64,000 bases of DNA from Callorhinchus milii (GCF_018977255.1 NW_024704742.1:43774001-43838000); one strand, 5' to 3'; shown: positions 4,541 through 60,789, counted from the first letter of the stretch. Numbers and translations are program-made. The notes: a model not told the origin generated them from the letters alone.

Positions 4541-5768
4541 CTGGAACCACTTTTACTCCAGTTGATTCTAAATAATTGAGAGACTAAAGTGTTTGACAAC
4601 AATGAATTAAAATGTTTAGTTGTTCTTGCCAAAGTCATCTTGGCAAGAATCATTTTTAGTGAGAATTATCAATCTGTTTTGTTCGTTCTAAATCTCCACA
4701 GTACAAAGGGCATAAATTACACCGTTACTAGTAAATGGTGCCCACAAGGAACTCCGTGAGGAGAAAAGACAGTTTTAAAAAAAAATCTGTTACCTGGTGT
4801 GTTTTTATTTAAAGAAATAAAGATTTTAAATAAAAATACATCAGGTAATGCATGTTGTTTATTGTTGTAAGAACAAGTTACAAGAAAAAACAATAGTAAC
4901 TAAAGCAATAAAATAAATAGAACAAAAATGGGTGATGGGGAGAGTGTTTAAATATTTCTCCCATTCCTTTTCCCCCATTTTTCGTGAAGAAAAAATGGGT
5001 GTGGGTATACTTTTTCCTAGATATGTTCAGTGGTGTTGAAAAGACCCCCATTCTGTGTATTATACCATATATATCATTTCTGAAATTAATTTCAAAACTG
5101 TCAGTGTTTGTAATAAATTAATAACTATATCCAAGACACATCATCAAATTTCTTGCATATGGTGATATCAATATTTGATAATGAAGCAAAATACATTACA
5201 TTCTCCTCCTTTTCCTCAAAAAGGAAATCTAATGAAACTATTGTATAGCTCACCTCACCCAGATCCTGGCTACCAACCTCTGATTCTATCTGTTTTCAAA
5301 AAATATTTAGACCTTTTGAGAAGAGCATTTTTAAAAATATTTCTGCAGAAAGACGCTGATGTCAAAATATGTCTGACAACAAATTAAAATGTTTTAATTC
5401 CATACCAAATTTTCCTTTTAGTTAACCTACAGACCATTTCACGAGCTGGTGTAATAAATACTGACATAGTTGAAACCCTTTATCAATAACAGGACATTAA
5501 TTGAAGGGGTTTCAAAAAGGGACTGACTGAAATTCCTAGATTAAAGGGTTTATCAAAGGGTGTCAGGGTTGTTAGATGTCAAAATTATTTTCTGGGAAGA
5601 TGGATGGGTAGACTAAATGGACCAATAATCTACTCCTGCATGAAACTGTTATTGTGCTGATTGTTAGCTAGCTGGCTGGATTGTTGACCTTCACATTCCT
5701 GTATCATATTAAAACTTATTGTGTCAACGGTACTTAGCAGCTCTGTGACTTGTTTTTTGTTTCCTCAG

Positions 5769-5836
5769 ATAGAGGAAATGACAACTGGTTAATTAAGTAC
5801 GAGAAGCCAGAAACCAGAAGGGAATCTCCTGACAAG
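5769..5836 (+). CDS. PI4K2B: PI4K2B exon ((D)RGNDNWLIKYEKPETRRESPDK)
   Basis: ttcctcag acceptor and AAG/gtagac donor; completes the catalytic-loop motif DRGNDNW; phase-compatible. Confidence 0.95.
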
Positions 5837-6496
5837 GTAGACTGCTGGACATTCACCTTGTTAATTTTTCATAATGTATTATATCCCAGACAAAAGCAGC
5901 ATCCAAGTTATATGTTGCTGCGTGGTTTGTGTAACATAGCTCCCAGAAAGCATTACTACTTGAGTTTTATTATCTGCAATTTGTGTGCAAAATAGAATGC
6001 TTACCAGATTCAAATCCACTCGGTTCTTCTGAAGGACTGTGGTGTTTGTTCACTTAGGTGATTCTGTGTTTAAATTGGATGATTTATGTCGATTGAAAAA
6101 AAATGCAACAAATTATTAATATTGACTCAAGCCAGTTAGACATTTGGGCATGTATAATTTGATTATGTGCTGAAGACTAATATTAGTCTTGGCTTATATA
6201 GTTTAGAGACGAACATCAATTTGGCAGCAGAAGCAAAATGTATTAAAATGACTCATTAATTCCTGTAATTGGTATTTTGTCTGTAAAAGTGATGTTAAAA
6301 GCATGAGTCAGTACCATTATTTAAGATTGTTTAGTCAAAGTCAATTAACATAACTGACTTTGTACTCAATTCTGAACCAAATTTTTGCTGTATAGATTTG
6401 TTTAAAACCTATAAAACCAATTTATGATTTGTAAAATTCTCCTCCATCATTTGTTTTTCCGTTTAATAACCGTTAAAATCCTATTCTGTTTAATAG

Positions 6497-13520: not shown

Positions 13521-13781
<261 letters not shown>

Positions 13782-17778: not shown

Positions 17779-18177
17779 ATAAAGTTGGGAGATTCTTGGA
17801 ATTCAGAATTCTTTCCTACAAATGACTTGAAACTGAGTCCAGAACAGCATTTTAAAAAAGGTGGACTAGTACTGTACTAGTACAGACACACAATTGGCCA
17901 AATTATTTCATTATATACTTTTAACTTTTTGTGCTTTATGTATACTCCAGGGCTCGGTGTTAGCTTTCAGCACATGCCCAACAGGTTCTGCATATCCAAA
18001 TGTTTCACAGACCCAGGCATGGCTAATTACCTGTTGAAACTATCCAAGTCATCATCATTGGTTTTAATCTTTCTAAATGTCATGAGTGCAGATATCCAAT
18101 CTTACAAAAAGGACAAAGCCTTGCAGCTGAAACCCTCATCCATGCCTTCGTCACTTACCAACTCAACTATTCAAACA

Positions 18178-20075
18178 CCTGGGTCGGGAGACATGGAGCA
18201 GGCCAGAGCCGGCTGAGCGGAGGGAGTGGGCGGGTTGGCAGGGGGTTAGGAGGTTGCAGAGGTAGGGTGGCCATGGAGGGTTTTGTAGGTGAGGATCAGG
18301 ATCTTGAACTGGATCCTCTGATGGATAGGGAAGCCAATGGAGTTGGGCGAGAATGGGGGAGATAGGATCACAGAGTTTAGTGCGGGAGAGGACACGGGCT
18401 GCAGAGTTCTGGATTATTTGCAGCCTATGGAGGGAGGAGTTGGGAAGGCCGTCAAGCAGGGAGTTTGCATAGTCGAGCCTGGATGTGATGAAGGCACGAA
18501 CGAGAGTTTCAGTGGCCTGAGGGATAAGGTAGTGGAGTCGGATAATGTTACGGAGGTGAGGGAAGGCAGAGCGGGTCATGCCTTGGATGTGGGGAAGAAA
18601 AGACAGTTGAGGGTTGAACAATAACAACAACAAAATTACATTTATAGAGCGCCTTTCAAGTCGGGAGGACGTCCCAAAGCGCTGAACAGTCGGGTGTCGG
18701 GGCCCGAGCATGGGGGAGGGGTGTGGTCTAGGGGTGAGGGAAGGCAGAGAGGTGGGAGGGAGACCAAAGGCACGGTCGAAGAGAAAGATCTTGAGACCGA
18801 CCTTGAAGGAGGCAAGGGAGGAAGTGATGCAAAGGGACCGTGGGATGGAGTTCCAGAGTGTGGGGGCAGAGAGGCTGAAAGCCCAGCCACCGATGGTAGG
18901 GTGGGTTGGGCGGGAAACATGGAGCAGGCCGAAGCCTGACGAAAGGAGGGAGCGGGCAGGCTTGTAGGGAGTCAGCAGATCAGAACGGTAGGAGGGGGCA
19001 AGGCCATGGATAGCCTTAAAGATGAGGACGAGGATCTTGAATTCGAGCCTCTGGGGGATGGGGAGCCAGTGGAGTTGGGTGAGGGTGGGAGTGATGGGGT
19101 TGCGGAGCCTGGTGCACGAGAGTACACGAGCTGCAGAGTTTTGGATGATCTGCAGCTTGTGAAGGGAAGGGTTGGGAAGGCCGATGAGGAGGGAGTTCCC
19201 GTAATCAAGTCTTGAGGTGACGAATGATTGGTTGAGGGTTTTTTGCAGCCTGACAAGACACCCAGGATCCTGACTGGCTATGGTGAGTTGTAGTGTGCAA
19301 CCATGGAGGTTGATGCTGCCAGAGCCTGAGGTGCTGAGGCGCTGGCGCGAGCCAAGCAGGAGGGCCTCAGTCTTGCTCACATTCAACTGTAGGAAATTTG
19401 TCCTCATCCAGGACTTGATGTCCGACAGACAGTCTGTCAGGACAGCAGTGGTCCTGGAGTTGAGGGTGGAGGCAGAAAGATAGAGTTGGGTGTCATCCAT
19501 ATATATGGAAGTTGACCCCATGTCTGCGGATGATGTCACCAAAGGGGGAGCATGTAGATATTAAAGAGGAGAGGGCCAAGGGCAGAGCACTGGGGGACGC
19601 CAGATGTGACGGTGCAGGGACTGGAAGAGAAACCGTTAGAGGCAACAAAGTAAACCACTCCCATCACACCAGTCCTCGCCAGGCTCCACTGGCTCCCTAT
19701 CACAGAACAGATCGACTTCAAGATCCTCATACTCGTCTACAAATCCCTTCACACCCTGGCACCTCTCTATTTCTCCGACCTGCTTATTCCCCACGCCACC
19801 ACCCGCCACATCGACTCGGCTAGCCTCCTGCTTTTCTCTCATTCCTTCCATTCCACCATCGGCAGCAGTGCTTTAATCCACTACGCTATGAAACTCTGGA
19901 ACTCTCTCCTTCAATCCTTCACCGCCTTCACCTTGTCCCCTCCCCCATCCCATTTTTAGATCACGCCTTAAGATCTTCCTTTTTGAGTATGCCTACAGTC
20001 ACCTCCCCCTGGTTCAGCATCAGACTCCAAGAGACTACCCAGGCTCCAGAGTGCTATATAAATGCAACTTGTTTT
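18178..20075 (-). mobile_element. Cluster of L2 fragments: two tandem minus-strand pieces (18178-18620, 18621-19650) and an older plus-strand piece (about 19660-20075)
   Basis: The 459-aa ORF 18163..19542 repeats SRLDY.NSLL.GLP..LHWLP twice and reads through an L2 tail. Confidence 0.9.
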
Positions 20076-22024: not shown

Positions 22025-24669
22025 CCATATAGTAAATACGCCTCAAATTGTAATTCCTACATGCAGTAACCTTTAATTTTCATTGAATTTGATTTATCAG
22101 TAATCAGAGCAGGTGCAGTCCATGTTGATTTCTCTTTTCCAGACCTTGGGTGCCTCCTTTGATTTCACAATTCACCCTCTGTCTGTAAAATGTATTACTT
22201 TGCACTGACTGCTCTATTTAGTTCCAATGGTCCCAGCGTGGACTTGTGGACACCCCACTGAATACTTCCTACCATTTTAACCTCACTCTGCTATTTTAAA
22301 TATTTTTAAATATTTTAAATTTTTATTTGCTTTGATTTTGCACAAGTTTTGTTTCAGAACTACAAAGTCAAAAGTACATTTTGTTTTTGCTGTCACTGCT
22401 GGAAGAAGTACAGTGCTACATTATCAGAAGTGCTGTCCTTCACGTGTCAAATTGGACCACATTGACATAAGCCATCAGCTCATGTCTAACAAGCACACAC
22501 CCAAATTACACCCACACTTACAATTACACATTTGACTCCCCCAAGTCAATATTGCAGTGATTATTTTTTACAAAATAACTCAACAACTTGGATTTATATA
22601 ACGTCTTCCACATGAGGTACTGGCTCAAAGCACTTAAGCCAGTAATTCAAACAGCCTCTATCTATGTGTACATGCTTAGTCCTGCAAATAACTTGTCTTG
22701 AATCCAGAACATGATTTATATTGTTATTGTGATTTGACATTGATTTGATAGCAGGCAGCATTTTTTGCAGAATTTATAGTGTATGGAACAGACCACTTAA
22801 CAGTATCAGCATCTCCAAATGGCAAATCTGGAATGCTAAGTTCCAAGTGCATCCAAAATAGCCACTTATACTGAAGAATGATATTATACATGTTCCCAAG
22901 AAAACAAACAGATCTCAGAGCTTTTATAGAAATTAAACTTTTTAATGAAAGGTTGTTTTAAGGCATGCATTTTGAAAACATTTAGATCACAAACGTACAA
23001 TAAATATAGGATGTAACTTCATACAATCTGAATGTTCACGTTACACTGTAACATACAGGGGGAAAAAATCAATGATGTGAGCACATCTTAAAGATGTCCT
23101 TGTGAAATGGCTAGGCCTATTAATCATTAGGAGTCCTAGTTAATAAATAGAGAATATAAATATATTGTTTAAAAATCTTACTCTTCTTCCCTGGATGTGA
23201 TATAGGGATTTCTGCAGCAAGTATTTGATGTAATGCATCAGTAGATACAGGAGACCATGCAACTCTTTCCTTCTTTCATTTTCATTTCCTTCTATGCTTG
23301 ATCAACTGTCCACATTACATACAGATGTAAGCTGCCAACCTTAAAAAAGGTTTGATGTCTAATTTAGTTCTGTTGAATAAGGCAAAAGCACACATATATA
23401 CACACACAGGTGGAAGCATTTCACAACATATGTAATTCCAAGCTAACAAAAAGGTTTTAATCAGGGGTGACCTTGTTAAACTCTCAAACAGAAACTCAAT
23501 CAATAAAACGTTATCCAAAAAACTTGTTTATGGCTCAATGAATGTTTAGAGGCAATAGATGAGACCCTGTAAAGCACAGAGTAAAGAATGTTACATGCAA
23601 TTTCTCATCTCAATCCTGATAAAGTGGACTTGGTAATGCTTGCCCAGCTTTACTATTGCAAGGTTATAATTTTGGGAGTGGTTAGCATTGATTTGAGAAC
23701 ATTTTGCTGAAATTAGTGAGTTTGTATAAGGTTAGTATTAGCCTGGAGTTACTTTACAATGGAAAGAATAGGTTAATTAAGATTAACCTTTAAAAAGCCT
23801 ATGCACCAACAGTGAGTTAGAAAATAGTGAACAATTCAACTAGAGAATTGTAACAAAGGCTGTACAATGTTCATTTAATGTAAGTTGACATATTTGCATA
23901 CACGGGGAAGCTGACTCCATGTTTGCAGATGACATTGCTGAGAGGGAGCATATAGACGAAGAAAAGAATGGAGCCATGGATGGAGCCCTGGGGTACCCTG
24001 CAGGGGCTGGGCAGGGGCGACAGGAAAAACCAAGAAGTGCTGGCGGTTGGTTAAGTAGGACTCGAACCATGTGAGTGCAGTCCCACTAAGGTGGATGAGG
24101 GAGACAGTGGTGGAGGATGGCATGGTCGAATGCAGAGGAGAGGTCCACGAGGACGAGGAGGCTGAGAGAGCCCTGGTCACAGAAAGAGAGGACATCATTT
24201 GTTACTTTGACGAGCGCTGTGAGCTGGGCAGAAACCGGACCAGAGGGGTTCGAGTAAGGGAGGGAGTGGAGGGTGTGGTGTGAGCAAACTTGATTTGCAA
24301 CAACTCGTTCCAAGAACAGCAAGTGTTGGTCATAGCACAGGAAGAGGACTTACAATAAGCATATCAAATGAGCAACAGAAATGTTATACATTATCAGGAA
24401 TGCAAGGCATCACAAAAACGTGATCAACAACAACTTGACAGACAACTGTCTAAGCAAGAATCTAAAACTGCTTTGAAGCCATTGTGTATCTATTCAATCA
24501 CACTTCAAAAACAATCTGCATCATTAAAATAGTCTTTGGGAGTAATTTTGCCCCCTGGTATTTTGTTACAATCATTCAGTCTAACCACAATCAATTCAAT
24601 CGCCCATCTCACAGGTAATTTAAGCCTATTGAGAACATCACGTTTCATGAGAATACAGGGTCACAATTT

Positions 24670-24833
24670 TCATCCATTTATGATTTCAGTAATCCAATTA
24701 CTGAAGGCAGTGGTCTTTGCATATATTCCTGGAAGATTAGGTCTTGCACAACCTATTCCACCGGAAACAATTCCTGCCAATATCCAAGCCGAGAATCCAC
24801 ATCTTGGCACAGCAAAGGTCCTCCAGAATCTCC
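24670..24833 (-). CDS. Protease exon 6: catalytic Ser ([10 protein letters not shown]...), frameshifted as assembled
   Basis: ccctag acceptor. [14 protein letters not shown] is followed by a frame change near 24791-24795 to [39 protein letters not shown] (TGA 24672-24670). The unshifted frame stops at TAG 24755-24753. Confidence 0.9.
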
Positions 24834-25516
24834 CTAGGGATACACAAAATACAAAGTTCAGATACGTGAAGATTGCAAAGATCAGGATTGATCTGCGTTC
24901 AATTCTGTATCATCTATTTTTTGAAAAATCTGGTGTACTATTAGTATGCAAGTTTATTCTGTGACTCATGAACTTGCAGACATTTTTATAATTGGAAATA
25001 GAACTGTTGATCAATAAACAGCAAAAATCTGAACAAGTGCAAATTAAACTCATTTTGTACTATTTGATTTTTAAAAAAAAAAAATCCAAAGTATCAAATC
25101 AGTGAGTAGGATAATTTGCAGCTCAACGGGACTGAATAGATTTTTTTTTGAAAAAGTCAGCACAGACACAGTGGGCCAAATGGGCTAATTTCTATAGTTA
25201 TTGTTATATGATTGCATCACAAGCTGACGGATATAAAATGTTTTGGAGGGAGCCACAACCACTTTGTAAAGATACAGACCCACATTCAGTATTAACTAAT
25301 CTCAATCAGAGAGGTCACAATGTGATCTATGGCAAATAGAGAGCATTATCATTGTGGTGGTGATTTGAGGAGTAGGGTGGCAAGACTACAATATCTGCCT
25401 GTGTTACAGCAGATGTAGAATATTCAATGCTGACATTCATCCCACAATTGGAAATGTCTTCATGTTAATATCCATCTTAGGAAAATAAAAATGTCAATAA
25501 AATTGTTATTCAATAC

Positions 25517-25653
25517 CTGGCACGTATCTTTGCCACCTTCTAGGACCCCTGCACACATCATCTGCCTAGTTATCGTTTGGGATGTTAAGGCTTCACAATC
25601 ACTATTGTTGAAAAGCTTAACTTCCGTCTTCAAAAGTTCATTACTGGAGGCTC
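25517..25653 (-). CDS. Protease exon 5 (GASSNELLKTEVKLFNNSDC...MMCAGVLEGGKDTCQ)
   Basis: ttaacag acceptor and CAG/gtattg donor; Asp189 equivalent in KDTCQ implies trypsin-like specificity. Confidence 0.95.
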
Positions 25654-26288
25654 CTGTTAACAAAACAGATGGACATACAATACTTTTAGATTGTACAATC
25701 GCATTAAAGAACAACGGACCCAGTCAAGAGTGGCAAAACAGTGTACAATATATTCTAACATATGTCAATGACATCCAGAGGTAGCACACTGTGTGTGGGT
25801 TCAGAAAATACATTTGTTTGCTACCAGTCATATTTGCCGTAAAGAAATTGTTACTAAGCTCTCGTTAATTCAACAATAACAGTCCACTTGGAGAGTTTGA
25901 TTATATATGGCACATTTCTTTTCGTCCGATTGCAGAAACTGCATCCACTTTAATAATAATGCTTGCATTTGATAAAGCGCCTTATCACATCTTCGAGACG
26001 TCTCAAAGCCCTCCGTAAGAATACACTGTAAACTGAATTGACTGTAGATTTTTTGGGCACCTTTATTTACAAAGACTATTTTGAAGACAAATTTCCAGAA
26101 CAAACATCACGATTCAATGTGATCCTTCCATCCAGAATGCTTGAGCAACACTACAAAGGGTCTTTCCTGAGTTAATTTGCCCTGGTGACCTCCACAGATT
26201 GACTCTTAGAAAAAGCTAAAGGCAAGACATCAGGGGTGCAATTCTAACTTGGGACTCAAATGTTCAGGATTAATAAAAAAATACATAC

Positions 26289-26557
26289 CATTTTCAGATA
26301 TTTTTCCCCACCCAATAATTATGCAGTATTGACCATCAGTAAACAATGGTGTCGCTGGAGGCAGGCAAGCTGGTTGGACAAAGTCTGTATAATGAATGGG
26401 TGTAGTCAACTCCAGTAGAGCAACATCATAATCAGTTGTAGAAAAGTTTGCATCGGGATGAATGATTATTTTCCGGATAGTTCGAATCTGAACATTTGGA
26501 TTCATTTCCTTATTCAAATAATGCACACCAAAGACTGCAGTCAAAGAATCCTCATTC
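26289..26557 (-). CDS. Protease exon 4: catalytic Asp (IIIHPD...DYDVALLEL...VQPACLP...CIIIGWGKISEN)
   Basis: ttggcag acceptor and G/gtatgt donor; phase 2/1; overlaps ORF 26230..26544. Confidence 0.95.
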
Positions 26558-26567
26558 CTGCCAATAG

Positions 26568-27238
26568 AACAACAACAACAAAATTACATTAGTATAGCGC
26601 CTTTCACACTGGGATGATGTCTCAAGGTGCTGGACAGTCAGTTTTCCAGACCTGAGCTGGGGGTTGGGATTGAGGAGGGTGGAGTGCAGGGGGGGAAGGA
26701 GGGTGATCGAAAGCACAGTCGAAGAGGAGAGACTTGGGATAGTTGAGGGTCAAACAAGACGCCAAGGTTTCAGACTGGCTTAGCAAGGTGGAGTGCATAT
26801 CCATGGATAGTGATGCTGTCAGAGCCTGAGTTGAGGAGGTGCTGACGGGAGCCAACCAGGAGAGCCTCAGTCTTGTTGAAGTTCAACTGAAGAAAGTTAG
26901 CTCTCATCCAGGACTTGATGTCTGACAGACATTCTGTCAGGACAGCAGTGATCCTGGAGTCAAGGGTGGAGGCAGAGAGGTACAGTTGGGTGTCAATCGC
27001 ATACATATGGAAGTTGACCCCATGTCTGCGGATGATGTCACCAAGAGGGAGCATATAGATATTGAAGAGGAGTGGACCAAGGACAGAGCCCTGTGGAACG
27101 CTGTATGAGATGGGGCAGGGGCTGGAGGAGAAGCCATTTGTGGAGATGAAGTGGAGGCGGTGTGAGAGGTGCAATCTGAACCATTCAAGGGCAGAACCGT
27201 GAAGCTTTGAGGTGAGAGGAGAGGCGGTGGATGAGAAG
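26568..27238 (-). mobile_element. L2 fragment in protease intron 3, tail abutting the exon 4 acceptor
   Basis: VPQGSVLGPLLFNIYMLPLG RT motif (ORF 26770..27255) and family 3' tail. Confidence 0.9.
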
Positions 27239-27851
27239 AAAATAAAATTAGTCATGCATTATTTGCTGGGAAATTATTATGATTTATTTCCTAACCCAGA
27301 TCCTCAAAGTATTAAACCAATCATTTTAATTGAGGAAAAATGAGAATGGACATAACCTGTAGAGGCATAATTAATGTAGATGCGTCTTATTCAGGTTAGA
27401 CTCAGTGCAAGAGTACTTAATTAATGAGCTTTAAAAGTGCTGAGGATGAGTATATAATATATTTATACATACCCACATTTATATATGTATATATATAATT
27501 CTTAAAATATACACATATATTTAAGACTTGCACAATTACGAATTGTGTAATAACAATTCAACAAACCAAATTCATTCTATGTGGATTGTGGAAGCACTGT
27601 AATCCTATGGAGATTCAGTAACACTAAAATGCAGTACAAGAACCTTTCTAAAAATAAACAGTACAGTATACAATAGATACACGTGTGCTCTAAACACTTG
27701 TAAGCTGAACAGTTTGCAACTTGCCTTCAAAATGCATAGTCACAATGGTTCACAAAATAATTCTGGGGAACACTTTGAGACATCCTCCTGACATGAAAGG
27801 TATAATATCAAGGATTGACTTCCATTATGAAGCAGCTGTGGCAGACTTTAC

Positions 27852-28020
27852 CTGTTCTCAAAACAGTGTGCAGCCGAGACAATCCACCTGCAGGATACTA
27901 GTGTTGCTCCACAGAAGTGTTGCCCGTGATGTTGCAGACTCACTTGAAAAGGCCACTCGCCGTCTGTTGTACTCAATCCTCCTACTATTCGGTGAGTTAC
28001 TACTTTTTGTCTTCCGCAAC
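27852..28020 (-). CDS. Protease exon 3: activation site and catalytic His ([15 protein letters not shown]...GEWPFQVSL...[22 protein letters not shown])
   Basis: gtaacag acceptor and AG/gtaaag donor; R|IVGG and AAHC motifs of S1A trypsin-family proteases. Missed by the ORF track. Confidence 0.95.
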
Positions 28021-28372
28021 CTGTTACAGGAAAGGAATGCAGTTATTAGAGTGCGTTGAAAGGCAATAAAGGAATTATTCGTAGCAATGTTTCCCATTTT
28101 TTCTAACTCAAGTGGTGGCCAATAGTTTTTGGTCCGTCAACCAAATACAGTTTTTTTAAAATTGATTTTTCTTTATTTATGGCAGCGCCTTGAGCATCGC
28201 AGCAACTGGAAACAAAGATTTGGCCGAGATTTGCCTGGACTATTGCCATTTCTTGACACCCCCAAAGTAGTCCGTGGGCTACTACAAAGCCATAAATAAA
28301 GAAAAATTCAACAAAGAAAAATGTATTCGGTTGGCCAACCAAAAAGATTAACTACCTCTGTGTCTAAATCGA

Positions 28373-28693
28373 TTAATAATAATAATTCTTGCATTTGCTA
28401 TAGTGCCTTATCACATTGTTGAGATGTCTCAAAGCACTTCACAGGATATACTGTAAAGTGAATTGACTGTATATTTTGTGGGAGAAGTGTGGCACCCAAA
28501 TGGGCACAGCAGTGTCTTGGATTGAGTGACCAAATTATTATTGTTATTTATTTCTTGTTTCAATAGATTATTATTCCCGGAAAACAGAGGCGTGTGGAGT
28601 AAGGAAACCTGCCCAACATTTCGCCCTGCCCAGGAATCGAACCCAGGTCCTCTCGCTTGCGAGGTGAGTTGTCAAACCACTAAGCTACAGGAC
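28373..28693 (-). mobile_element. Deu-domain SINE
   Basis: tRNA head (B-box ggttcgattcc on the minus strand) and family tail. Confidence 0.8.
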
Positions 28694-28736
28694 TACAGCT
28701 TGTTTAAAAGAGTTCCATAATACAGGAAGCACTTAC

Positions 28737-28805
28737 CACAGCCTGCAAAATCACGACTGTTTCTACAAGCTTCATTATCAGTGCACTGGACAGGGAAGTA
28801 AAGAT
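28737..28805 (-). CDS. Protease exon 2: 23-aa stem with half-LDLa-like Cys spacing (YLYFPVQCTDNEACRNSRDFAGC)
   Basis: tttttctttcag acceptor and gtaagt donor; 69 nt, phase 1/1, open; C-x5-C-x8-C spacing. Confidence 0.75.
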
Positions 28806-30121
28806 CTGAAAGAAAAAGTTAAATTTTTTACCTCAGGTGCAGTGAGAAGTTATACACCAGTTCCACGATAGAATGCTACAGCACACAAATAGGCTATTTG
28901 GCCGAACCGGTAGTACACTAATATTTATAGTTCACATGAGCCATCACCGCTCCTACTCCCTCTCCATTTCCTTCTCCCTCCTTGAAAGCTTCACAAGTTA
29001 GCTATTATAAGCTAACTAAAGGGAGAACTAGTTTAGATCTGGTCTTAATAGAACTTTATTAATTAGGGGGAAAATGGTCAGGGTGAGGGGAGGGAAGGGA
29101 GGGGGTGAGGAGGGGGTAGAGAGTCGAGAGGGGAGCTGAAGGCACAGTCAAAGAGAAAGGTCTTGAGACCGACCTTGAAGGAGGAAAGGGAGGAGGCGGC
29201 GAAGGCACTGGGGGATGGAGTTCCAGAGCCTAGGGGCTGAGAGGCTGAAGGCCCGGCCATCGATGGTAGGGCGGTTGGGGCGGGGGATGTGGAGCAGACC
29301 GGAGCCAGAGGAACGGAGGGTACGGGCAGGTAGGTAGGGGGATAGTAGGTTGGAGAGGTAGGAGGGAGCAAGGCCGTGAATGGCCTTGTAGGTGAGGATG
29401 AGGATCTTGAATTCGATCCTCTGGGGGATGGGGAGCCAGTGGAGGCGAGCGAGGGTGGGAGTGATGTGGTCCCGAAGCCTGGTGCGGGACAGTACACGAG
29501 CTGCAGAGTGCAGCCTTGGATGCTGATGCTGTCAGTGCTAATGTCTGAACCACAGAATCCATTCAAGAATACAACAGTGGCATGTAAATCTATGAGCTAA
29601 AGTACTGACCTTGGGCTTGAGCCCACAACTCAGAGGCAAGAGTGTCACTAGCTCAACATGATGGCAGCCATGAATTTTACCAGGACACTACAGAACTCAT
29701 TCTCTTCATCACAGATCATATTCAGATGCAGTTATAGAGATTTGTGCCCCTTTAGGTAGCTGTGGTATACTTCAATGACCTAGTTCTAAACTAAGTTAAA
29801 CAGAGACCATCTTCATCAATTAACGTTTGGTAAAACTTGTTCGGAACAGAATAAATAGGTGAAGAGCTTGCAAAAAGAATGTTAGCTAAAAAGCTTTTTG
29901 CTAAAGACATTTGACATTTAAAGTTTACACTTTTAATTAATTGGTAGAGGAAATTATTCGGCAAGTCTCTCATCCCATCCAAGTCATTGTAAATGTTCAA
30001 GAAAGACATTCTGAAACAGCTACTGTTAATCTCACTACGATTTCAGCTTTCAGTTTCTAGGATTACACAGCAGACCGTACAATCATGCAATCCGTGTTAC
30101 AGCAACAAATAGAATACTCAC

Positions 30122-30260
30122 ACATTGTAACAGCAACAGCTAGCCCCAATAACAAAAAAGACACTGAAAATAAAACTATTGCAAGAATCTTCCAATGTCT
30201 GTATGTCAGTGTCTGTGTTTTGATTGCCTCTGCCTTCGGTGCTTCAATATTTCCTTCCAT
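30122..30260 (-). CDS. Type II transmembrane serine protease, exon 1: short cytoplasmic tail and signal-anchor TM
   Basis: ATG at 30260; MEGNIEAPKAEAIKTQTLTYRHWK-ILAIVLFSVSFLLLGLAVAVTM (basic residues, then about 22 hydrophobic residues); gtgagt donor, phase 1. Confidence 0.75.
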
Positions 30261-30577
30261 TTGTCACTGTTTGCGATCAGAGCAAAGGAGATTCACTGCA
30301 TGAAATATATATTTTCTCCTGAACAACTCCTGCACTAAGCTGAAGTCATATGCACATGGTAGAGTGAAGTGAGTATTACAAAGGATACAAAAATAGCCTC
30401 CAGCTAGTCAACGTAGATTTCAAGACATAATTGGAATTTCTGCCTATTTTTTGTTAACTTTTTCCTGTTTGAGACACCCGCACGTACATCAGCCTTTCAC
30501 TGTGGATGGGAAAGTGGTGGATCAAGTTAAAGCAGTAATGATGGGAAGGGTGTGGTGTCTTTATTGCAAAGTGAATA

Positions 30578-33196: not shown

Positions 33197-35240
33197 CAAC
33201 AACAACAAGGTTACATTTTTGTATAGCGCCTTTCACGTAGGGAGGACGTCCCAAGGTACTGGACAGTGTACAGAATTTCAGACCCGAGTTGGGGTCGGGG
33301 GGGAGAAGGGAGGGGAGGGGAAGGGGGGTGACCGATGGCATGGTCGAAGAGGAGGATTTTGAGGTGGGACTTGAAGGAGGCTAAGGAGGAGGCGAGATGG
33401 AGTGATTTGGGGATGGAATTCCAGAGGTTCGGGGAAGAGTGGCTGAAAGCTCTCCTGTCAATGGTGGGGCGGGTGGGTCGGGGGACGTGGAGCAGGCCAG
33501 AGCCGGCTGAGCGGAGGGAACGGGCAGGGGTTTAGGAGGTCCCAGAGGTAGGGTTGGGCGAGGCCATGGAGGGCTTTGTAGGTGAAGACCAGGATCTTGA
33601 ACTGGATCCTCTGAAGGACAGGGAGCCAAAGAAGTTGGACAAGAATGGGGGAGATGGGGTCACGGAGTTTGGTGCGGGAGAGGACACGGGCTGCAGAGTT
33701 CTGGATTATCTGCAGCCTGTGGAGGGAGGAGTTGGGAAGGCCGACAATTGGGCATTTGCATAGTCGAGCCTGGAGGTGATGAAGGCATGAACAAGAGGTT
33801 CAGGGGCCTGAGGGGTGAGGTAGTGGCGGAGTCGGGTAATGTTACAGAGGTGAGGGAAGGCAGAGCAGGTCATGGCTTGGATGTGGGGAAGAAAAGACAG
33901 TTGAGGGTCAAACAAGACACCCAGGTTCCTGACTGGCTATGGTGAGTTGTAGTGTGCAACCATGGAGGCTGATACTGCCAGAGCCTGAGGCGCTGAGGCG
34001 CTGGCGTGAGCTAATCAGGAGGGCCTCAGTCTTGTTCACATTCAACTGTAAGAAATTTGCCCTCATCCAGGACTTGATGTTCGACAGACAGTCTGTCAGG
34101 ACAGCAGTGGTCCTGGAGTTGAGGGTGGAGTAGAAAGAGTTGGGTGTCATCCGCATACATATGGAAGTTGACCCCATGTCTGTGGATGATGTCACCAAGG
34201 GGGAGCATGTAGATATTAAAGGGGAGAGGGCCAAGGACAGGGCCCTGGGGGACACCAGACTTGACTGTGCGGGGGCTGGAGGAGAAACCGTTAGAGGCAA
34301 CAAAGTGGAGATGGTGAGAGAGGTAGGAATCGAACCAGGCAAGGGCAGGTCTGCGAAGATTAAGTAAAGAGGAGAGGCAGTGTATGAGGATGAAGTGGTC
34401 GACAGTGTCGAAGGCGGCAGAGAGGTCGAGAAGGACAAGGAGGCAGAGGGAGCCCTGATCACAGATGTTCAGAATGTCATTAGTGACTTTGACCGGGGCT
34501 GTTTCCGTGCTGCGGACCGTGCAGAAGCCGGATTGGAGGGGTTCAAAGAGAGAATGGCGAGAAAGGAAGGAGCGGAGCTGGGACCTGACGACTCGTTCCA
34601 GGACCTTGGAGAGGAATGAGAGGTTAAAGATGGAGTGGTAGCTGGAGAAGAGGGATGAGTCCAGGGAAGGATTTTTCAGGATGGGAGTGATGACAGCTGT
34701 TTTTAGGGTGATGGGAACTGAACCAGTGGACAAGGAGAGGTTGATGACATCGGACCGAAGAGGGGCCAGAAGGTGGAGCTGGGAAACGAGGAGAGAGGTG
34801 GGGATGGGATTGAGGGAGCAGGTGGTGGGTTTGAGTTTGCAAACAGTCGTAGTGAGGGAGGAGGGAGAGATAGGATTGAAGGAGTATAGGGAGGGATGGG
34901 TGGAGTTTGGGTCATGAGGGAGAGGTGATGTGATGGTGGACAGGGCAGAGGTGGCTGAACGTATCCCCTGATTTAGGATTCGAAGAAGTCCAGCATCTCC
35001 TCACAGTTGGCGTTTGAGGAGAAGATAGGTGAGACGTGGGAAGGTGGACGGAGGAGACAGTTTGTGGTGGAAAAGAGAAGCCTAGAGTTGTCCTTTGCCT
35101 CCAAGATTACCTTGGACTAGAAGGAGGATTTGGCGGAGGCAAGAGCGCAGCAATAGGACTTGGTGTGAAGCCAAATCTGCCGATGGACCATGAGTTTGAA
35201 TTTGGACCAAGCGCGTTCAGCAGCTCACACTTGTGCCTTG
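33197..35240 (-). mobile_element. Longest L2 copy (about 2 kb) including the RT domain, frameshifted
   Basis: ORF 34026..34733: SKVLERVV, QSGF, STETA, LLDLSAAFDTVDH, GVPQGPVLGP, YADDTQL. Confidence 0.95.
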
Positions 35241-36956: not shown

Positions 36957-36981
36957 NNNNNNNNNNNNNNNNNNNNNNNNN
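36957..36981. other. Assembly gap (25 N)
   Basis: Run of 25 N. Confidence 1.
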
Positions 36982-43535: not shown

Positions 43536-43941
43536 GTCGGGTGCTTCCAACCTTTCAGAGAGCCAGCCGGGGAGCAAACGTAACAATGTCTTGTGCGATG
43601 GAGTCATTTGGGCGATTTATTGGTTTAAGATCAAAGCAGGTCACATTTCCCCATCTCTGATACTAAGCTACCATCTCCTTACTGGGATCCGTTACTGTAA
43701 AGCGCTCTGAGATGCCGTCCGACGTGGAGGGCGCTATATAAATCCAAGTTGTTGTTGTTATACTTCACGGCTTTGCTTGCTGTCTGGATTTGGTGAACGC
43801 TTCAATCACAGTGGGTACCACAGGGGCTCGTGGAGTTAAGTGTACAAAACATGCTACCAGAAGATTCCGCCACCTATATCTGCTCTTCGGAGATAGCCAG
43901 CAATGTGAGGCTGGGAGACGGAACCAGTCTTGTGGTTACGG
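43536..43941 (+). pseudogene. IgSF receptor: germline-joined V-J (V-set) exon, disrupted
   Basis: ttcgcacag acceptor. Motifs in order: GANVTMSC (Cys 43592), IYWFK (Trp 43621), SGFGERF, LSVQNMLPEDSATYIC (Cys 43881), J-like LGDGTSLVVT. At least two frameshifts, an L2-tail insertion (about 43695-43782), and the donor reads G/atgaga instead of G/gtgaga. Confidence 0.85.
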
Positions 43942-44629
43942 ATGAGAGATCAGGAGTGGGTGGGTGGTGTGGGGGGAGAGATGACCAAGAGCACAGTCAA
44001 CTGCATCAGTTTTGAGATGGAGAGAGCGAGTTGGAGGGAATTCAGGATGGAGCAGACAGTACCAATGTGGGGGGAGCGAGCACCAGTATAGACTCAATGG
44101 GGAGGGAAAAGAGAGCAGAGGACTGGGGTTAGAGTAGAGAGCTCAGAGGAACACACTAACACTTGCACACCTTTCTCTTGCTCATCAGATTCACATACTC
44201 CTCCACCCCCTACCGCACCACTTCCCCCATGCACAATTATTACAGGATGTGCTATGTTGATTACTGCAGAGATGTATCGCCTGTTACGTGTAAACTCACA
44301 TTTGCTGAGGCACACACACACACACACACACATTTGTGCATGCAACCACACACACTCATACCTGTCCTCCCGCAGCTCACACAAAGACATGCACACACAC
44401 GCACACTCACATACACACAAATAAACACACAACACATGATGACACACTTGCACACACCTGTCACGCCTACCCTTCCCTCATAAATGTACACACAGTGGAT
44501 CGATCACTAAGTCATGTATGGACATGATGGGGGGGAAGAGAGAGCAGGAGAATGTGGTTAGAGTAGTGAGCATATCTTAGTTGTGCAAAAATGTGAAACT
44601 CACAATCATTTCCCTTCTGACCCTGGGAG

Positions 44630-45644: not shown

Positions 45645-47242
45645 GATCAGGAACCAGCTCATGATCAGCCAGCAAGTCTCAGACCTCACGCATCAGCCCA
45701 TCCTGAACTACCAAACCGCAGCAAGCACACTGGGAATCGCTGTGAAGCTCTCAGCGACGTCTCTCTGGGGTGAAAGGCATTGTGTAAATGGAAGCCGTGA
45801 AGCATTGTGAGACATCTCTCTGGCTGTGTAAATGTATTTCGCTGTGAATCTATTTACCCACGATAAACCTTGTGGTTAATAACAGTAAATTGGAGTGAAC
45901 AGGCCACAGACAGGAAATGAGGTTTATCATCTCTTGCACTGCGCTGCTCCTTCCCTCCCTCCCCCTAGCACTGCACTGGAGCGTCAGCCTGGACTGGGAG
46001 CTCAAAGTCATGGGGTGGAGCTTGAACACAACAACAACAAACTGCATTTACTCAGCACCTTTCACTTTAGGAGGATGTCCCAAGGCACTGGACAGTCGAG
46101 GGTTTGCACCCCAGCTGGGGTGTGGATTCGAGAGAGGGGTTGGGAGAAGATGACTGAAGGCACGGTCAAACCACACTGCCTTCTGACAGAGAGAGACTGA
46201 ATGTGTGAGAGAGAGAGAAAGAGAGAGGCTGACCAAAAAGACACACACAGACTGAGACAGAAAGAGACACACACAGACTGAGACAGAATGGTGTTCCTGT
46301 CTCTGATTGCCAGCCTGTCGGGGCTGAGCTGTGGATGGTGTTAAGCTGGTGCCTGTGATATCTCTCACTCTAGTCTCTCCCACTCACTGTTCACATCTTT
46401 GGAAACTGAGCGAGAGGGCTAGACATTGGTTTCTCACCTCAGCTGCTCGCCTCGCAAACCATGACCCAACAATCAGCTATCACCTCTGTCCCCTCATTAC
46501 ACTTCACAGTAATAACTCCCTGCTTCCTACTGACTCTATATGTGTGTGTCTCTCTCAGTCTGTGCGTGTAAATGCAATTTTTTATGAATGTGAGAGGCAG
46601 AAAGGTATCCCCCCATCCTTGCACAACTCCACTGGCTTCCCATCACACAGAGGATACAGTTCAAGATCCTGGTCCTCACCTTCAAAGCCCTCCTTTGGCC
46701 TCGCTCTCCCCTACCTCCTAACTCCCTACCCATGCTGCTCGCTCCTTACGCTGAGCGGGCTCCGATCTGCTTCACGTCCACCGCCTCGCTCGCCCCACCG
46801 TTGGCAGACGGGCCTTCTGCTACCCTGCCCCCACCCTCTGGAACTCCATCCCACAGTCCCTCCGCCTCAACCCCTCCCTTTCCATCTTCAAGACCCATCT
46901 CAAGATCCTCCTCTTCGACCGTGTTTTCGATCTCCCTGCTTCGACCCCTGCCCTCCACCCTCCCCGACCCCGACCCCAAGCTCGGGTCCGAAACTCTGAC
47001 TGTCCATGCTCATTGGGACATCCTTCCGATGTGAAAGGCGCTATACAAATGTAATGTTGTTGTTCTGTCTCACTCACTCGCTCCTGACTCCCTCCCTCCC
47101 TCACTATCTCTCTCACTCCCTCAATGTACTGCATTTACCCATGAGGTGCAACCTCCCACCCCTTCTTTCATCTCTCCATTCACTCGCTAATCCACTCACT
47201 CACCAATTGACTGACTGTTGTTTCATGTTAACAGTATTAAAT

Positions 47243-47321
47243 ATGGCAGAACAGGAGCCTCTAGGGATTGAGGTTATTCTGGATGAGGAAGCAGAGTCCA
47301 GAGCTCCTATGTGCCCACATG
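47243..47321 (+). CDS. ZCCHC4: ZCCHC4 (28S rRNA m6A methyltransferase), first coding exon (MAEQEPLGIEVILDEEAESRAPMCPH)
   Basis: G-x-EV..AP-x-CPHG start of the GRF zinc finger; G/gtaaga donor; synteny with PI4K2B. Confidence 0.9.
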
Positions 47322-47529
47322 GTAAGAGCAGATTTTTTAAAATCCTGAATTTGAGAGAGAATTGTGCAATCTGGGAGCTTGTGATTGCTATCACTTCACT
47401 TCACTCCTACTGCTCTACCTCTGCCGACTTCTCCTCCCCTCCTTCAACCTCTACCTCCACATCCACTCTGCCACCAATGTTCATGGTCAACCCCTCGACC
47501 TGGTGATCACCCGGAGTACGTATTGCTTT

Positions 47530-52910: not shown

Positions 52911-53876
52911 TCTGGGTGATTGTTAGTCAGGACACTGAGAGAAGCTGCCCTTTCTTTCCAATAAATATTTTGGGAATTTCTTTGTGTAGGTGGAACACAT
53001 ACAAAACTCTCAGTCTTAGTTTGGAGATACTCTTAAGCAAAGTGATGGGTTTCGTACATTTCAGACACCCGGCTGCCCCCATCCCCCCCACCCCCCACCA
53101 AATAAACAAACATTTTTTCTATCTAGGGTTTGTTGACCAGGATACTGAGAGAAACTGCCTTTTCTTTTTGACTCGTGCCTTTGGAACTTTTTAAAGTCCG
53201 TCTGAACAGACACCAAAGACCTTTGTTTGACGTACCATTTTAGTCAGCTGAGTGTCTGAGATATGCTTAAGAGTATCCAAACTGGACTAAGAGTTCCACA
53301 TCTGTAAGCATAAGGAAATTTCCGTATGTCTGGAATGCATTGTGCGCACTACCTGGAGGATCGCACCCTCCTTAGTTAATGCTGGAGAATATTAGGCACG
53401 AGTTGGCTAGAGCCACGCTCGTGCCATTGAGAACACTGTCTGGCAAGCGTCCTGTTTGACTTGGTAAAGCCACCTACCCCATATACACATTCCAACAGGA
53501 AGAATCCTTTCTCACAGTGGCTGGTCAACCTATCCCTGTAAGTCCTGGTGATGAGCCAGGCTGACTGGTCTGTCCTCACCAGTGCTCTGGAGTACTATGG
53601 ACCTGCTTGGCTCGGGAACTGTATCATCTTTACTTCTATCGCGCTATCCCAACACTGCATTAGAGTGTCAGCCTCAAATACTGAGCAGTGCCATCCCAGT
53701 CAGTGGAGTCTGAGTTTCCTTTCGCCTTTTGCTTTCAGGTTACTCCTCTTTTAAAGTGTGGTGTATGAACATCCAATAGGAATAATAATCCTTGCATTTT
53801 ATGTCTTCGAGATGTCTCAAAGCGCTTCACAGAATATACTGTAAAGTGAATTTACAATTTACAATTGCGTACAGCC

Positions 53877-57684: not shown

Positions 57685-59304
57685 GTAATAAAGCTGTAAC
57701 TTGAGCCAGATGTTTACAGGAGAGCAGATGCTTCACTGTTAGATTTAATAATAAAAAAGGCAAAAAAAAAAATCCTGTACCCTTGAGAGTGAAGGAGATC
57801 AGGAATTTAACTGGGTGTAAAGAAGAGAAAATTGAAGGTGGAACATTGGCATTGCAGGAAGCATCACTAGTTCGATGTGAATTTCTGAGAGTGGGTTCTC
57901 ACAGAGCAGGTTGCCAATCTTGCCGATGATATTTAAAGGCTTTCGTAGTTGCTGTGTCCTGTTATCAGAGGCTTGCACACAATGTGGAATCTCTTTCCAG
58001 AAATCAATATTTGATGGGAGATGAAATATTAATGTGTATGGAGAAAATGACTAATCCTTGACTTTTGATATTGCGTCTTATCATGTTGTCAAAATATCTC
58101 GCAACATTTCACAGGATTGCCTATGGACGGTATTGACTGTATTTTTTAAGCGAATATGGCAGGTAGTTTTCCTCACAGCAATACCCCACCTGCAGACATG
58201 AACACACTGTGGTTTCTCTTCAGATCATATAAATCTTGACGTGAATGACAATTTTCATCTTGCAGATTGTTAACTAACAAAGATGCATAGTTTATTGTCA
58301 AACTGGAACAGATGGGGAGATGGTATTAAACGATCTGCTCTGAAGTGACAAAAAGGCACAAGATCAATGGATTGAATGACCTCTGCCAGTTAATATGTTC
58401 CTAAAGATGTGTGCTTCACATGAGCAGCCAGAAGAACATTCATAGGATCTATTGCGTGAGCACATGCAGTTGGAGAATAAAAGGTGTCTCCATCTTTGGG
58501 ATCTTACATACTCCAATTGCATATATATAGCCCATAAAATAGAGTCAATACACTTAACAGTATATTCTGTCAATAGCTTTGAGACACCTTGAAGACGTGA
58601 TGAGGTGGTAAATCAAATGCAAGGATTATTATTATATTTTTATATATATACAGTTGGTAGATATCTCCTCTCTAATAAAGTCAGATGATATTTGAGTCAG
58701 AAGTTCTATGTCTGGACTTCAAACTCAGTCTAAGCTGCCACATTAGGATAATGGCTAATAATAGTATAACAATGCAAGGGAATGCTGCATTGTAAAAGGT
58801 GCCGTCCTTCGCATAAGACATTAAACCATGGTCCCATCTGCCTATTCAGGTGGACGTTAGAGATCCATGGTTCAATTTGAAAAGAGAAGGGAGTTTCTAG
58901 TAAAGTAGCCATAGAGTACGTATATTTGTTATATTAGGGTTGAAAATGTGTCTATGAGGAAAATAAAGATGGAATAATGCTTCAACATCAAAAAAAGTTT
59001 GACTGGATGTTAAATTCGACTACAAGTCGGTGCCGCCACCTCCAATTGAGACTTGAGTGTTCTCTGCAGGAGTTGCACATTACGTCCAGGGGTGTGTTTT
59101 TCCACTCTTTTTATCAACAACATTTGAACCTTATTCCTTGAATAAGATTGGACTTTTTCTTTTTGAAATACCGTCACGCTGGTTAAGATTTTCCAAACGC
59201 TCGTCGTTTTTTTAAGAGTTGCCTTGAAATTGGTAAAAATATGAGGATGTCATTGTTGGAAAATGAAAGATTTATTTGGATGGTTACATTTTTTTTTAAA
59301 AAAG

Positions 59305-59580
59305 GTATCAGAGCTTCGTGGCTTTACCCCTGGCAAAGAGAAAGTTTTGTGCAGACTGTCAGCTCTTGCTGCTTCCTGAAGAATGGGGTCCACACAGCGC
59401 CCACTGCCTGCTCAGTGACGTCTCACTCGCTCAATTGAAAAGACCAAGCCGCCTCCTGCTTCCGCTCGAGAACAAAAAGACCAACGCTCAGTACCTGTTT
59501 GCTGACCGCACTTGCCAGTTCCTGTTAGATATAATTATTTCACTCGGATTTCGTAGAGTGCTCTGTGTCGGGACTCCACG
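59305..59580 (+). CDS. ZCCHC4: ZCCHC4 exon ([49 protein letters not shown])
   Basis: aag acceptor after a T tract and CG/gtatgt donor; C2H2 finger and start of the methyltransferase domain. Confidence 0.97.
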
Positions 59581-60789
59581 GTATGTTCATCCATAAAATG
59601 TCGGTGTTAATGAAGCTTTTCTGACTTCCTACATCCCCAGAGTAATGCCTCGCTGCAGTGCACTGTACCCAGTCAATCTGCTGACTGATACCTGACCAGC
59701 TCTAAGCTTTGCATTTCATGAGCTATTAACCTAATTTGTACATTCAATTGAACTTCGCAGCTGCTAGGGATTCATTCTAGGGACATAAATCTAATGAAGT
59801 TCAGTAAAGACTTCTGTATTTTTGTTAAAGAGGCATTTTGTGTCTGTGTGAAAAAGCCCATCCCACTTACTCTAATGCAGTTACTGTTATGTAGGTTGAG
59901 TAGAGATGGGTAAATGCTCTCTGATGCTTATAATGCAGAAGCACTTTAATCGAAGCAGCCCAACAACACCCAAGACTATCGCAGAATTCACCCCGATTAC
60001 ACCACAGGGCATTTGCAGCAGTGGAGGCAACAGAAAACAAGTACACATGTGCCATTTCACGTACATGTAACGTAGAGAAGTTAGGAATCACTAGTTCATA
60101 TTTTTAGCTATCAGCACTGCCTAATTTCCAAGGGCACAAAGGAGCACCTATTGAAAAAAACATATTGCTGACCTACATGCACAGGCTGAGGGCCAAAGGC
60201 AAAATGAGGGCCAACAATTGCTTTTGAATTGCTTCCTCTGATGCCAAGTAATAATAATAATAATAATACTTGCATTTGATTGCAATTTATCACATTGAAA
60301 TAATAATAATCCTTGTAATTCTCACCCCTGAGTCAGGAGGTTGTGAGTGTAAGACTCAGGTCTTGCAACCCATGTAGTCTGCTGACATTTGAATGCAGAG
60401 CTGGTTGTGTGCTATATTGTCGGAGGTTACATACTTTGGATGAGACGTTAAACAAAGGTTCCATCTGTCCATCTTTCGAAAAGAGAAGGGAGTTTATCTC
60501 GTTGTTCTGGCCAGCAATTCTTCCCAATTAAAATTGGTCCCTCACTCCATGGCTGTTTGTGGGATATTGTTATGCACAAATTGGTTCCTTCTACATTTGC
60601 CCACAAAATAAACATAGTTTTATCACTTGACAGTATATTCTATGAAGCCCTTTGAGAGGTCTCAATAGTGTGACATAACACTATATCAAATAAAGGGATT
60701 ATTATAAATGTTCACTGATAGAATGTAGTAAAATATTGGATGTACTGTATGTTGCAAAATTAACAAGAGTGTTTTGAATGAACTTTCAG

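Follow-up and report, generated by a model that had tools for sequence, protein, structure and literature searches.

The stretch of DNA analysed here (the window) comprises 64,000 nt of the genome of the chimaera Callorhinchus milii (GCF_018977255.1 NW_024704742.1:43774001-43838000), equivalent to contig C1:43,774,001-43,838,000 in the 991.5-Mb assembly. Between PI4K2B and ZCCHC4 it carries a serine protease gene composed of six minus-strand exons within positions 24670-30260. This gene is read as an intact, transcribed, single-copy gene for a transmembrane serine protease of type II (a TTSP), 315 residues long, a member of an old family with half an LDLa module as its stem and with the mechanism proposed below, and the probability of this reading is put at roughly 80%. 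In 5' to 3' gene order the exons measure 139/69/169/269/137/164 nt, all five introns are bounded by GT..AG with pyrimidine-rich acceptors, and the phases (1,1,2,1,0) are compatible; the exon places and lengths, and the compatibility of phases, given in a preliminary description, made from the sequence alone, were reproduced in full. The gene is single-copy in C. milii: among 41 exon-level matches genome-wide, identities of at least 60% occurred only in the window's own exons.

Exon 1 (30122..30260, 139 nt of coding sequence ending in phase 1) encodes a 23-residue, presumably cytoplasmic tail followed by a signal anchor (MEGNIEAPK...LAVAVTM), and the stem, (Y)LYFPVQCTDNEACRNSRDFAGC, comes from exon 2 (28737..28805, 69 nt, phase 1-1), interpreted as an LDLa exon reduced to its 3' half, with Cys IV, V and VI. 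Exon 3 (27852..28020, 169 nt) contributes the junction Cys (GCG), the activation site, Cys113 (VSCRW) and His121, and exon 4 (26289..26557, 269 nt) contributes Asp170 (DYDVALLEL) and Cys190, the equivalent of chymotrypsin Cys122 (PACLP). Exon 5 (25517..25653, 137 nt) contains an NNS sequon and Asp258 (position 189) within KDTCQ, and the coding part of exon 6 (24670..24833, 164 nt in the window and 165 nt in sequencing reads) contains GDSGGP with Ser264, S-G-G at positions 214-216 and GCARPN, ending with a stop codon at 24672-24670. Pfam Trypsin was matched by four of the six exon pieces (exon 3, 3.7e-14; exon 4, 1.1e-15; exon 5, 9.5e-5; exon 6, 1.7e-6), and exon 4 additionally matched PDB ST14 at 1.7e-16; exons 1 and 2 gave no Pfam family match. 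Five public C. milii models match exon 4 at 97-100% identity.

Joined as assembled, the exons lose their reading frame inside exon 6 and run into an early stop. The break is a one-base gap at 24790..24791 (minus strand), and insertion of a single N at 24790/24791 yields 948 nt, or 315 codons and a stop, in agreement with the preliminary description's estimate of about 315 residues if repaired. Four public sequencing runs from three studies (X1, X2, X5 and X7) were aligned to positions 24600-30400. An extra letter behind 24790 was present at full depth in all four (17.2/17.2, 6.51/6.51, 12.5/12.5 and 7.9/7.9), and no further exonic differences were listed in these runs. The frame break is therefore an assembly error or a rare allele, and the repair amounts to restoring a dropped base, not to mending a mutation. 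The restored codon is Gln in the reads (DS-Q-AWILAG); four UniProt models derived from another assembly read through the site with Arg at this codon, and orthologues carry either Arg or Gln. The difference between reads and UniProt models may reflect an A/G polymorphism at the base dropped by the assembly. The exon 6 match to Pfam Trypsin lies on the frame downstream of the break and covers Trypsin positions 191-220. A public model of 287 residues named 'transmembrane protease serine 9' (P0009) uses the same exons, with an N-terminus identical to that encoded by exon 1, and follows the broken frame to the early stop; it is a truncation artefact.

Splicing was observed in run X5, in which a single 1,789-letter contig at depth 17.2 aligned in pieces at 24600-24832, 25516-25652, 26288-26556, 27851-28018 and 30122-30400. 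These pieces correspond to exons 6, 5, 4, 3 and 1, the boundaries being ambiguous by one or two letters. Between the last two pieces lie 71 unlisted letters of the record, equal to 2 nt plus the 69-nt exon 2, from which the presence of exon 2 in the contig is inferred, in agreement with P0009 and with every orthologue; no space is left for an additional stem exon. Furthermore, run X7, from a different study, covers exon 6 to its 5' boundary and continues for 54 record letters that fit exon 5. Runs X5 and X7 were taken as RNA because of these intron-free joins, and the X1 and X2 contigs read through the introns, as expected of DNA. The X5 contig (record 17) is unbroken over 30122-30400 and continues 105 letters beyond, so that the 5' untranslated region (UTR) occupies 30261..30400 within the aligned stretch; at the other end the same contig extends 526 letters past 24600, the 3' UTR occupying 24600..24669. 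The motifs AATAAA and ATTAAA were absent between 24669 and 23900, and the 3' end of the gene is therefore unplaced. An in-frame TGA at 30266-30264, two codons (6 nt) 5' of the ATG, stands inside the transcribed 5' UTR; this transcript therefore has no upstream coding exons, and a larger gene with upstream stem exons was rejected. The gene is transcribed and spliced as predicted, with exon 30122-30260 in use and the letter count between exons 3 and 1 fitting the junctions 30122 to 28805 to 28020.

The 315-residue product has a single hydrophobic segment, peaking at residues 25-43 (Kyte-Doolittle 19-window maximum 2.81), with all 19-residue windows starting at residues 22-36 above 1.6. It is preceded by the 23-residue tail, which is conserved across cartilaginous fishes, and in the orthologue P0017 a helix is modelled at residues 21-53 (AlphaFold2). 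The activation site R80|I81VGG, the triad His121/Asp170/Ser264 and Asp258 (position 189) were all located in the joined reading, as were junction Cys71 and Cys190; the signal anchor, CG...R|IVGG, triad and Asp189 of the preliminary description were thus recovered. At positions 214-216 C. milii has S-G-G (IVSGG), in which Gly replaces Trp215, a point on which that description was silent. On protein P0014 Pfam Trypsin scored 1.9e-66. From anchor to cleavage site the stem spans about 30-33 residues. TTSP stems normally contain at least one whole SEA, CUB, LDLa, SRCR, frizzled or MAM module. The TTSP build of transmembrane segment, modules and protease is described with variable modules in the review PMC10376093, which assigns SEA, two CUB and three LDLR repeats to matriptase-2. 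By these standards the C. milii protein has an N-terminal signal anchor with a short tail (the topology being predicted), a C-terminal S1 domain with its triad, and the residues of the R/K|IVGG, stem Cys and Cys122 arrangement, whose interdomain disulfide would be expected; a complete stem module is missing. It can be described, as before, as a type II protease with a transmembrane segment, a short stem of some 33 residues and a single S1 domain.

For the stem, the half-LDLa proposal of the preliminary description was supported along three independent lines, by cysteine alignment, spacing pattern, and shared intron position and phase, and the half is best taken to be the C-terminal one. HMMER aligned each of the four stem cysteines of P0017 with a Cys of human TMPRSS6 LDLa3, namely Cys IV, V and VI and the one at the junction, and the spacing is Cys IV-x5-Cys V-x8-Cys VI followed by an x-C-G junction. 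In a set of 280 proteins, the pattern C-x4-6-C-x7-9-C-x-CG-x3-14-[RK][IV][IVF][GN]G occurred at 22 family sites, each with a transmembrane helix directly upstream, and outside the family at 17 sites in 13 proteins, all 17 of which are full LDLa modules abutting an activation site. A second C. milii gene was informative on gene structure. This matriptase-like gene (G000:C4:10,948,000-10,960,300, minus strand, locus L014) is most similar to the LDLa-type protein P0065 of Latimeria. A single exon encodes its last LDLa; two acceptors are possible, giving a length of 120 or 135 nt, and the exon stops in phase 1, one nucleotide past the codon for Cys VI (...A-G-C|g). The exon that follows opens with x-C-G, and eight residues lead from there to IVGG. 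In the window, exon 2 ends identically (...A-G-C|g, phase 1), and between Cys IV and IVGG the two proteins can be aligned with no gap. The stem thus has the spacing, the junction and the phase-1 donor after Cys VI of a C-terminal LDLa half; of the six Cys of the full PF00057 module, which also has an acidic Ca-binding cluster, it has only three.

Used as a query, exon 4 returned 16 proteins of 305-319 residues at 53-62% identity, 15 of them from named sharks, rays and skates; a full-length shark query added three elasmobranch species. The common plan consists of a tail (NIEAxKxEEVKT), the anchor, a stem (LYFPxKCxDNEACxRSDxxACGCGxQK...R|IVGG) and a single S1 domain. Beyond cartilaginous fishes, the top matches with this architecture come from polypterids, namely Polypterus (303 residues, 50% identical across 92% of the query) and Erpetoichthys (302 residues), with the four-Cys stem and Cys at position 49 and lacking Trp215. 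The His, Asp and Ser of the triad and all stem and domain cysteines form invariant or nearly invariant alignment columns, Asp189, GDSGGP and Gly216 are likewise invariant or nearly so, and the activation Arg/Lys is retained in 21 of 22 members, the sites reading R-S-[DE]-R in batoids and T-V-T-G-R in sharks. Two or three family copies per contig are found in batoids (P0020, P0021 and P0030 in Rhinoraja; P0022 and P0025 in Pristis). The skate copy P0030 has Gly for Arg at the activation site and is missing part of the 170s loop, and may not be activatable.

A maximum-likelihood tree of 68 protease domains, built after the removal of ten outgroup rows that were long or of odd composition, placed the 22 family rows in one clade (100/100), and with the removed rows kept (78 rows, quick search) the clade was retained with an SH-like approximate likelihood ratio test (SH-aLRT) value of 99. 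A family protease-domain hidden Markov model (HMM) scored elasmobranchs at 380-440, the window at 376, polypterids at 362 and 338 and the next best at 258 (264 proteins). In an exhaustive profile search of 1.84 billion representatives, the only three single-domain hits among the 150 matches listed were these three groups (elasmobranch, C. milii and polypterid); the matches listed reached down to 326 bits and were mostly multi-domain polyserases with summed scores, behind which weaker single-domain relatives could be hidden. The ESM Atlas returned generic trypsin clusters only, and a protein search with P0017 residues 47-122 among longer proteins gave 32 candidates, none of which scored. Since a single clade extends across sharks, rays, chimaera and polypterids, the gene is read as old and lost elsewhere, and the data fit a family kept in cartilaginous fishes and polypterids. 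The preliminary description had left open a lineage-specific or elsewhere lost protease; relatives in at least 15 named elasmobranch species and two polypterids argue for the second part and against the first. The refuting condition named in that description, a known orthologue with the same architecture, thus applies in part: relatives of this build are already public, under automatic names as inconsistent as TMPRSS6-like, TMPRSS9-like, serine protease 27-like, enteropeptidase-like, testisin-like and ST14 homolog, at least seven in all. Literature searches, which covered titles and abstract openings, returned nothing published about the gene or about any TTSP with half an LDLa; the sequences are public as predictions, and the gene family is unstudied and unnamed in the literature found.

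Comparison with solved structures gave no clear subfamily for the domain. The P0017 protease domain scored best against enteropeptidase in the PDB (224-236 bits), followed by TMPRSS6 (222 bits), ST14 (211-217 bits), TMPRSS11E (202 bits), hepsin (191 bits) and TMPRSS2 (about 166 bits); it thus appears about equally near to several TTSPs, without pointing to one subfamily. The tree backbone did not resolve either, the only sister grouping being with tetrapod TMPRSS11 (85/92) in a tree without named full-length ST14, TMPRSS7, enteropeptidase, hepsin and TMPRSS2 rows. The affinity with the matriptase/TMPRSS6/7/9 group proposed in the preliminary description was accordingly not recovered in the protease-domain tree; the stem alone points to an LDLa-bearing ancestor.

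With the matriptase subfamily (ST14, TMPRSS6, TMPRSS7) the family shares a type II anchor, one S1 domain and a ...C-x-C-G... junction; in that subfamily, too, an LDLa abuts the activation peptide, the four family stem cysteines align with TMPRSS6 LDLa3, and the matriptase-like gene on C4 has its intron in the same place and phase. In contrast to the matriptase subfamily, the family has no SEA or CUB, only half of one LDLa, an extra Cys49 and no Trp215, and does not group with ST14-like or TMPRSS6 rows. Enteropeptidase (TMPRSS15) gives the best PDB score and shares Phe215, but its stem is a very large mosaic that ends in a module other than LDLa, and only one of the four family stem cysteines aligns with a Cys. 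In TMPRSS9/polyserase an LDLa directly precedes the protease domain, and three otophysan TMPRSS9 models have Cys49. The TMPRSS9 identity carried by the NCBI name, an automatic best-hit label, was nevertheless rejected on the basis of the single S1 domain, where TMPRSS9 has two or three tandem S1 domains, of the position outside both TMPRSS9 clades (d1 and d2), and of the HMM scores. The HAT/DESC (TMPRSS11) group, the weak sister in the tree, differs in having a SEA domain and a single stem Cys (..CGSR..R|IVGG), with no C-x5-C-x8-C-x-CG, whereas the family has no SEA.

A short stem is not in itself unique. A second short family in sharks and rays (P0057, P0060, P0071, P0100 and P0091) consists of a transmembrane segment, a very short stem with one Cys and no SEA, and an S1 domain, about 297 residues in all, and groups with chondrichthyan TMPRSS11-like rows, not with the half-LDLa family. 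The unusual shortness claimed in the preliminary description therefore holds as a length of roughly 30 residues but not as a singular feature. A similar unit of transmembrane segment, short stem and S1 domain occurs at residues of about 790-1070 of the frog model P0167, which groups with TMPRSS11-like genes. A TMPRSS11-like cluster lies on the same chromosome-scale contig as the protease gene at G000:C1:76.52-76.61 Mb, about 33 Mb away, and P0087, one C. milii member of the TMPRSS11-like group, maps to C1:76.56 Mb.

The cysteine complement of the family offers a possible account of how the half module is held. Each of seven members counted has 14 cysteines outside the tail and anchor, four in the stem and ten in the domain, the latter comprising the eight of the usual four pairs, Cys122 and a tenth in VSC-RW at chymotrypsin position 49 (Cys113 in C. 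milii). The Cys49 pattern was present in 28 of 28 family sequences and in 5 of 339 His motifs elsewhere, these five being the three otophysan TMPRSS9 models and two mole TMPRSS11E. A full LDLa module pairs Cys II with Cys V and Cys IV with Cys VI. With Cys II gone, cysteine parity and co-occurrence suggest three pairs: Cys IV with Cys VI, the junction Cys with Cys122, and the orphan Cys V with Cys49.

From these features a mechanism can be proposed. Residues 24-50 would serve as an uncleaved signal anchor, leaving the 23-residue tail in the cytoplasm and the stem of about 30 residues and the trypsin-like domain outside the cell. The protein would be made as a zymogen and cut after Arg80 (R|IVGG) to give a two-chain enzyme, and the active domain would stay tethered through the Cys71-Cys190 (chymotrypsin Cys122) pair. 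To our knowledge such a tether between the junction Cys and Cys122 is present in all TTSPs. Asp258 at position 189 would confer specificity for Arg or Lys, any substrate being conjectural. The stem would be the remnant of an LDLa module that lost its N-terminal half and kept Cys IV, V and VI, in which Cys V (Cys60), partnerless within the stem, would pair with Cys113 (position 49) of the protease domain. Two disulfides might thus bind stem and protease domain together, keeping the active site no more than a few nanometres away from the membrane; along the chain, only about 30 residues would separate the catalytic domain from the bilayer.

Several observations weigh against this reading. The label of X5 and X7 as RNA is a guess, none of the runs being on record as RNA. 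Pfam Ldl_recept_a was absent in 11 of 11 short members even at E<=10. The signal from a local LDLa-junction HMM is weak: the window scored only 9.2 bits, at about the 99.9th percentile of 2,000 Cys-preserving shuffles, 11 of 22 members lay above the 95th percentile of these shuffles, and negative scores were obtained for six skate stems that are shorter by one residue. In the AlphaFold2 model (18 sequences) the predicted local distance difference test value (pLDDT) of the stem was 42-54 at residues 51-90, the overall mean being 71.9. The Cys60-Cys113 bond is a suggestion from counting and co-occurrence. The polypterids sit on a long branch (0.86) with weak internal placement (84/74), and their orthology is argued from sequence features and the tree rather than from synteny. 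Finally, Trp was found at position 215 in none of 27 family sequences (F 13, A 6, G 5, S 3), and its loss could lower or narrow activity. SEA, CUB and SRCR likewise gave no Pfam match in the 11 short members at E<=10, the only matches being trypsin-type and sub-cutoff chance ones.

Position 215 bears on the alternative that survives best, though it is judged improbable: a weakened or very narrow protease that, having lost the Trp215 platform of S2-S4, acts mainly by binding, as a tethered partner or decoy. Every counted member has F, A, S or G at 215 (sharks, rays and Polypterus have Phe, skates and Erpetoichthys Ala or Ser, and the chimaera Gly, the five G all being C. milii models) versus Trp in 237 of 351 motifs outside the family, and the paralogue P0030 with its missing activation Arg would suit such a role. 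Against it stand the conserved triad, Asp189, oxyanion-hole motif GDSGGP and Gly216, the activation Arg/Lys in 21 of 22 members, and enteropeptidase, which is active with Phe215. Because of that last precedent, an active enzyme with an altered S2-S4 site is to be expected rather than a dead one.

Somewhat less probable still is a secreted or shed protease, which would lose its hydrophobic segment as a cleaved signal peptide or be released by a cut in the stem; it would then act in solution, and the shortness of the stem would not serve to position it. Shedding is known from other TTSPs, whose soluble forms are active, as noted for hepsin in PMC10376093; the hydrophobic run of the C. milii protein is however long, as the hydropathy windows and the P0017 helix indicate, and starts after a conserved 23-residue tail, which fits a signal anchor better than a cleaved signal peptide. 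A unitary pseudogene, in which the one-base loss is real in the species and the protease is cut before the 214-226 wall of the S1 pocket, was rejected as very unlikely despite the broken reading shared by the window and P0009 (both from the same assembly) and the oddity of Gly215 in an S1 protease, as the missing base is present at full depth in four of four runs from three studies, four UniProt models of another assembly read through, the downstream frame is conserved to the C-terminus with its Trypsin match, and no second coding change is listed in the runs.

The intact TTSP gene set out above can be placed in a wider history, which is offered only tentatively and is on balance doubtful as a whole. 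The family would constitute an unnamed fifth vertebrate TTSP lineage that arose in the jawed-vertebrate ancestor by truncation of the last LDLa exon of a mosaic ancestor, with the orphan Cys V captured by the new Cys49 to give a near-membrane enzyme stapled by two disulfides; teleosts and tetrapods would have lost it, whereas in cartilaginous fishes and bichirs it would have persisted for over 400 million years. In reviews of TTSPs the stem is presented as an array of complete modules by which activation, shedding and the choice of substrate are controlled. A family that has conserved half a module would be a natural minimal design, able to show whether a stem needs the tether Cys, a rigid spacer or nothing more, and would clearly illustrate how the truncation of an exon can be followed by a Cys that compensates for it, the bond itself being proposed. 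The public gene model is wrong twice, being truncated by an assembly error and named TMPRSS9.

The position of the gene between PI4K2B and ZCCHC4, given in the preliminary description, was borne out by plus-strand exons on both flanks. Among 104 stop-to-stop open reading frames (ORFs) in the left flank Pfam gave zero matches at E<=1e-4, owing to the shortness of the exon pieces, and the flanking genes were then identified through PDB sequence searches. Exons at 13521..13781 (2.6e-20 to PDB PI4K2B 4wtv) and 5738-5992 (3.9e-4 to PDB PI4K2B) both scored better against PI4K2B than against PI4K2A, and an exon at 59300..59593 matched PDB ZCCHC4 6uca at 2.4e-40. The ORF 47000-47503 contains a probable first exon of ZCCHC4, judged by eye. 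The protease gene is convergent with PI4K2B and divergent from ZCCHC4. In human these two genes are direct neighbours, and no gene is known to lie between them; a gene is thus added to the PI4K2B-ZCCHC4 interval, which should be useful for dating gene losses in bony vertebrates.

Additional features were observed in the window. LINE-type reverse-transcriptase fragments (Pfam RVT_1, all on the minus strand) occur at 26770-27258 (6.8e-14), which lies in intron 3 of the protease gene, at 34029-35000 (1.9e-22) and at 18166-19560 (1e-3). Copies of a tRNA-like short interspersed element (SINE) are present in the protease introns, where depth in the runs rises to 10^4-10^6. The interval separating the protease gene from ZCCHC4 includes a block of GC-rich repeats with a 25-N assembly gap at 36957-36981. 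Within the 17 kb that lead from the protease gene to the probable first exon of ZCCHC4, a stretch rich in repeats, the end of a plus-strand ORF at 43797-44012 resembles an immunoglobulin V-set followed by a J-like G-x-G-T-x-L-x-V (DSATYIC...GDGTSLVVT), with a Pfam V-set value of 3.5e-4 that is below the cut-off. A 24-nt tandem repeat at 53845-54241, open on both strands (DTHSLGYV..., about 16 copies), is probably a minisatellite in a ZCCHC4 intron. Downstream of the 59.3-kb exon and on the opposite strand to ZCCHC4, a 195-residue open frame at 62830-63414 (minus strand) matches SPRY (Pfam 7.7e-12) and may be a B30.2-type exon or a relic in a ZCCHC4 intron.

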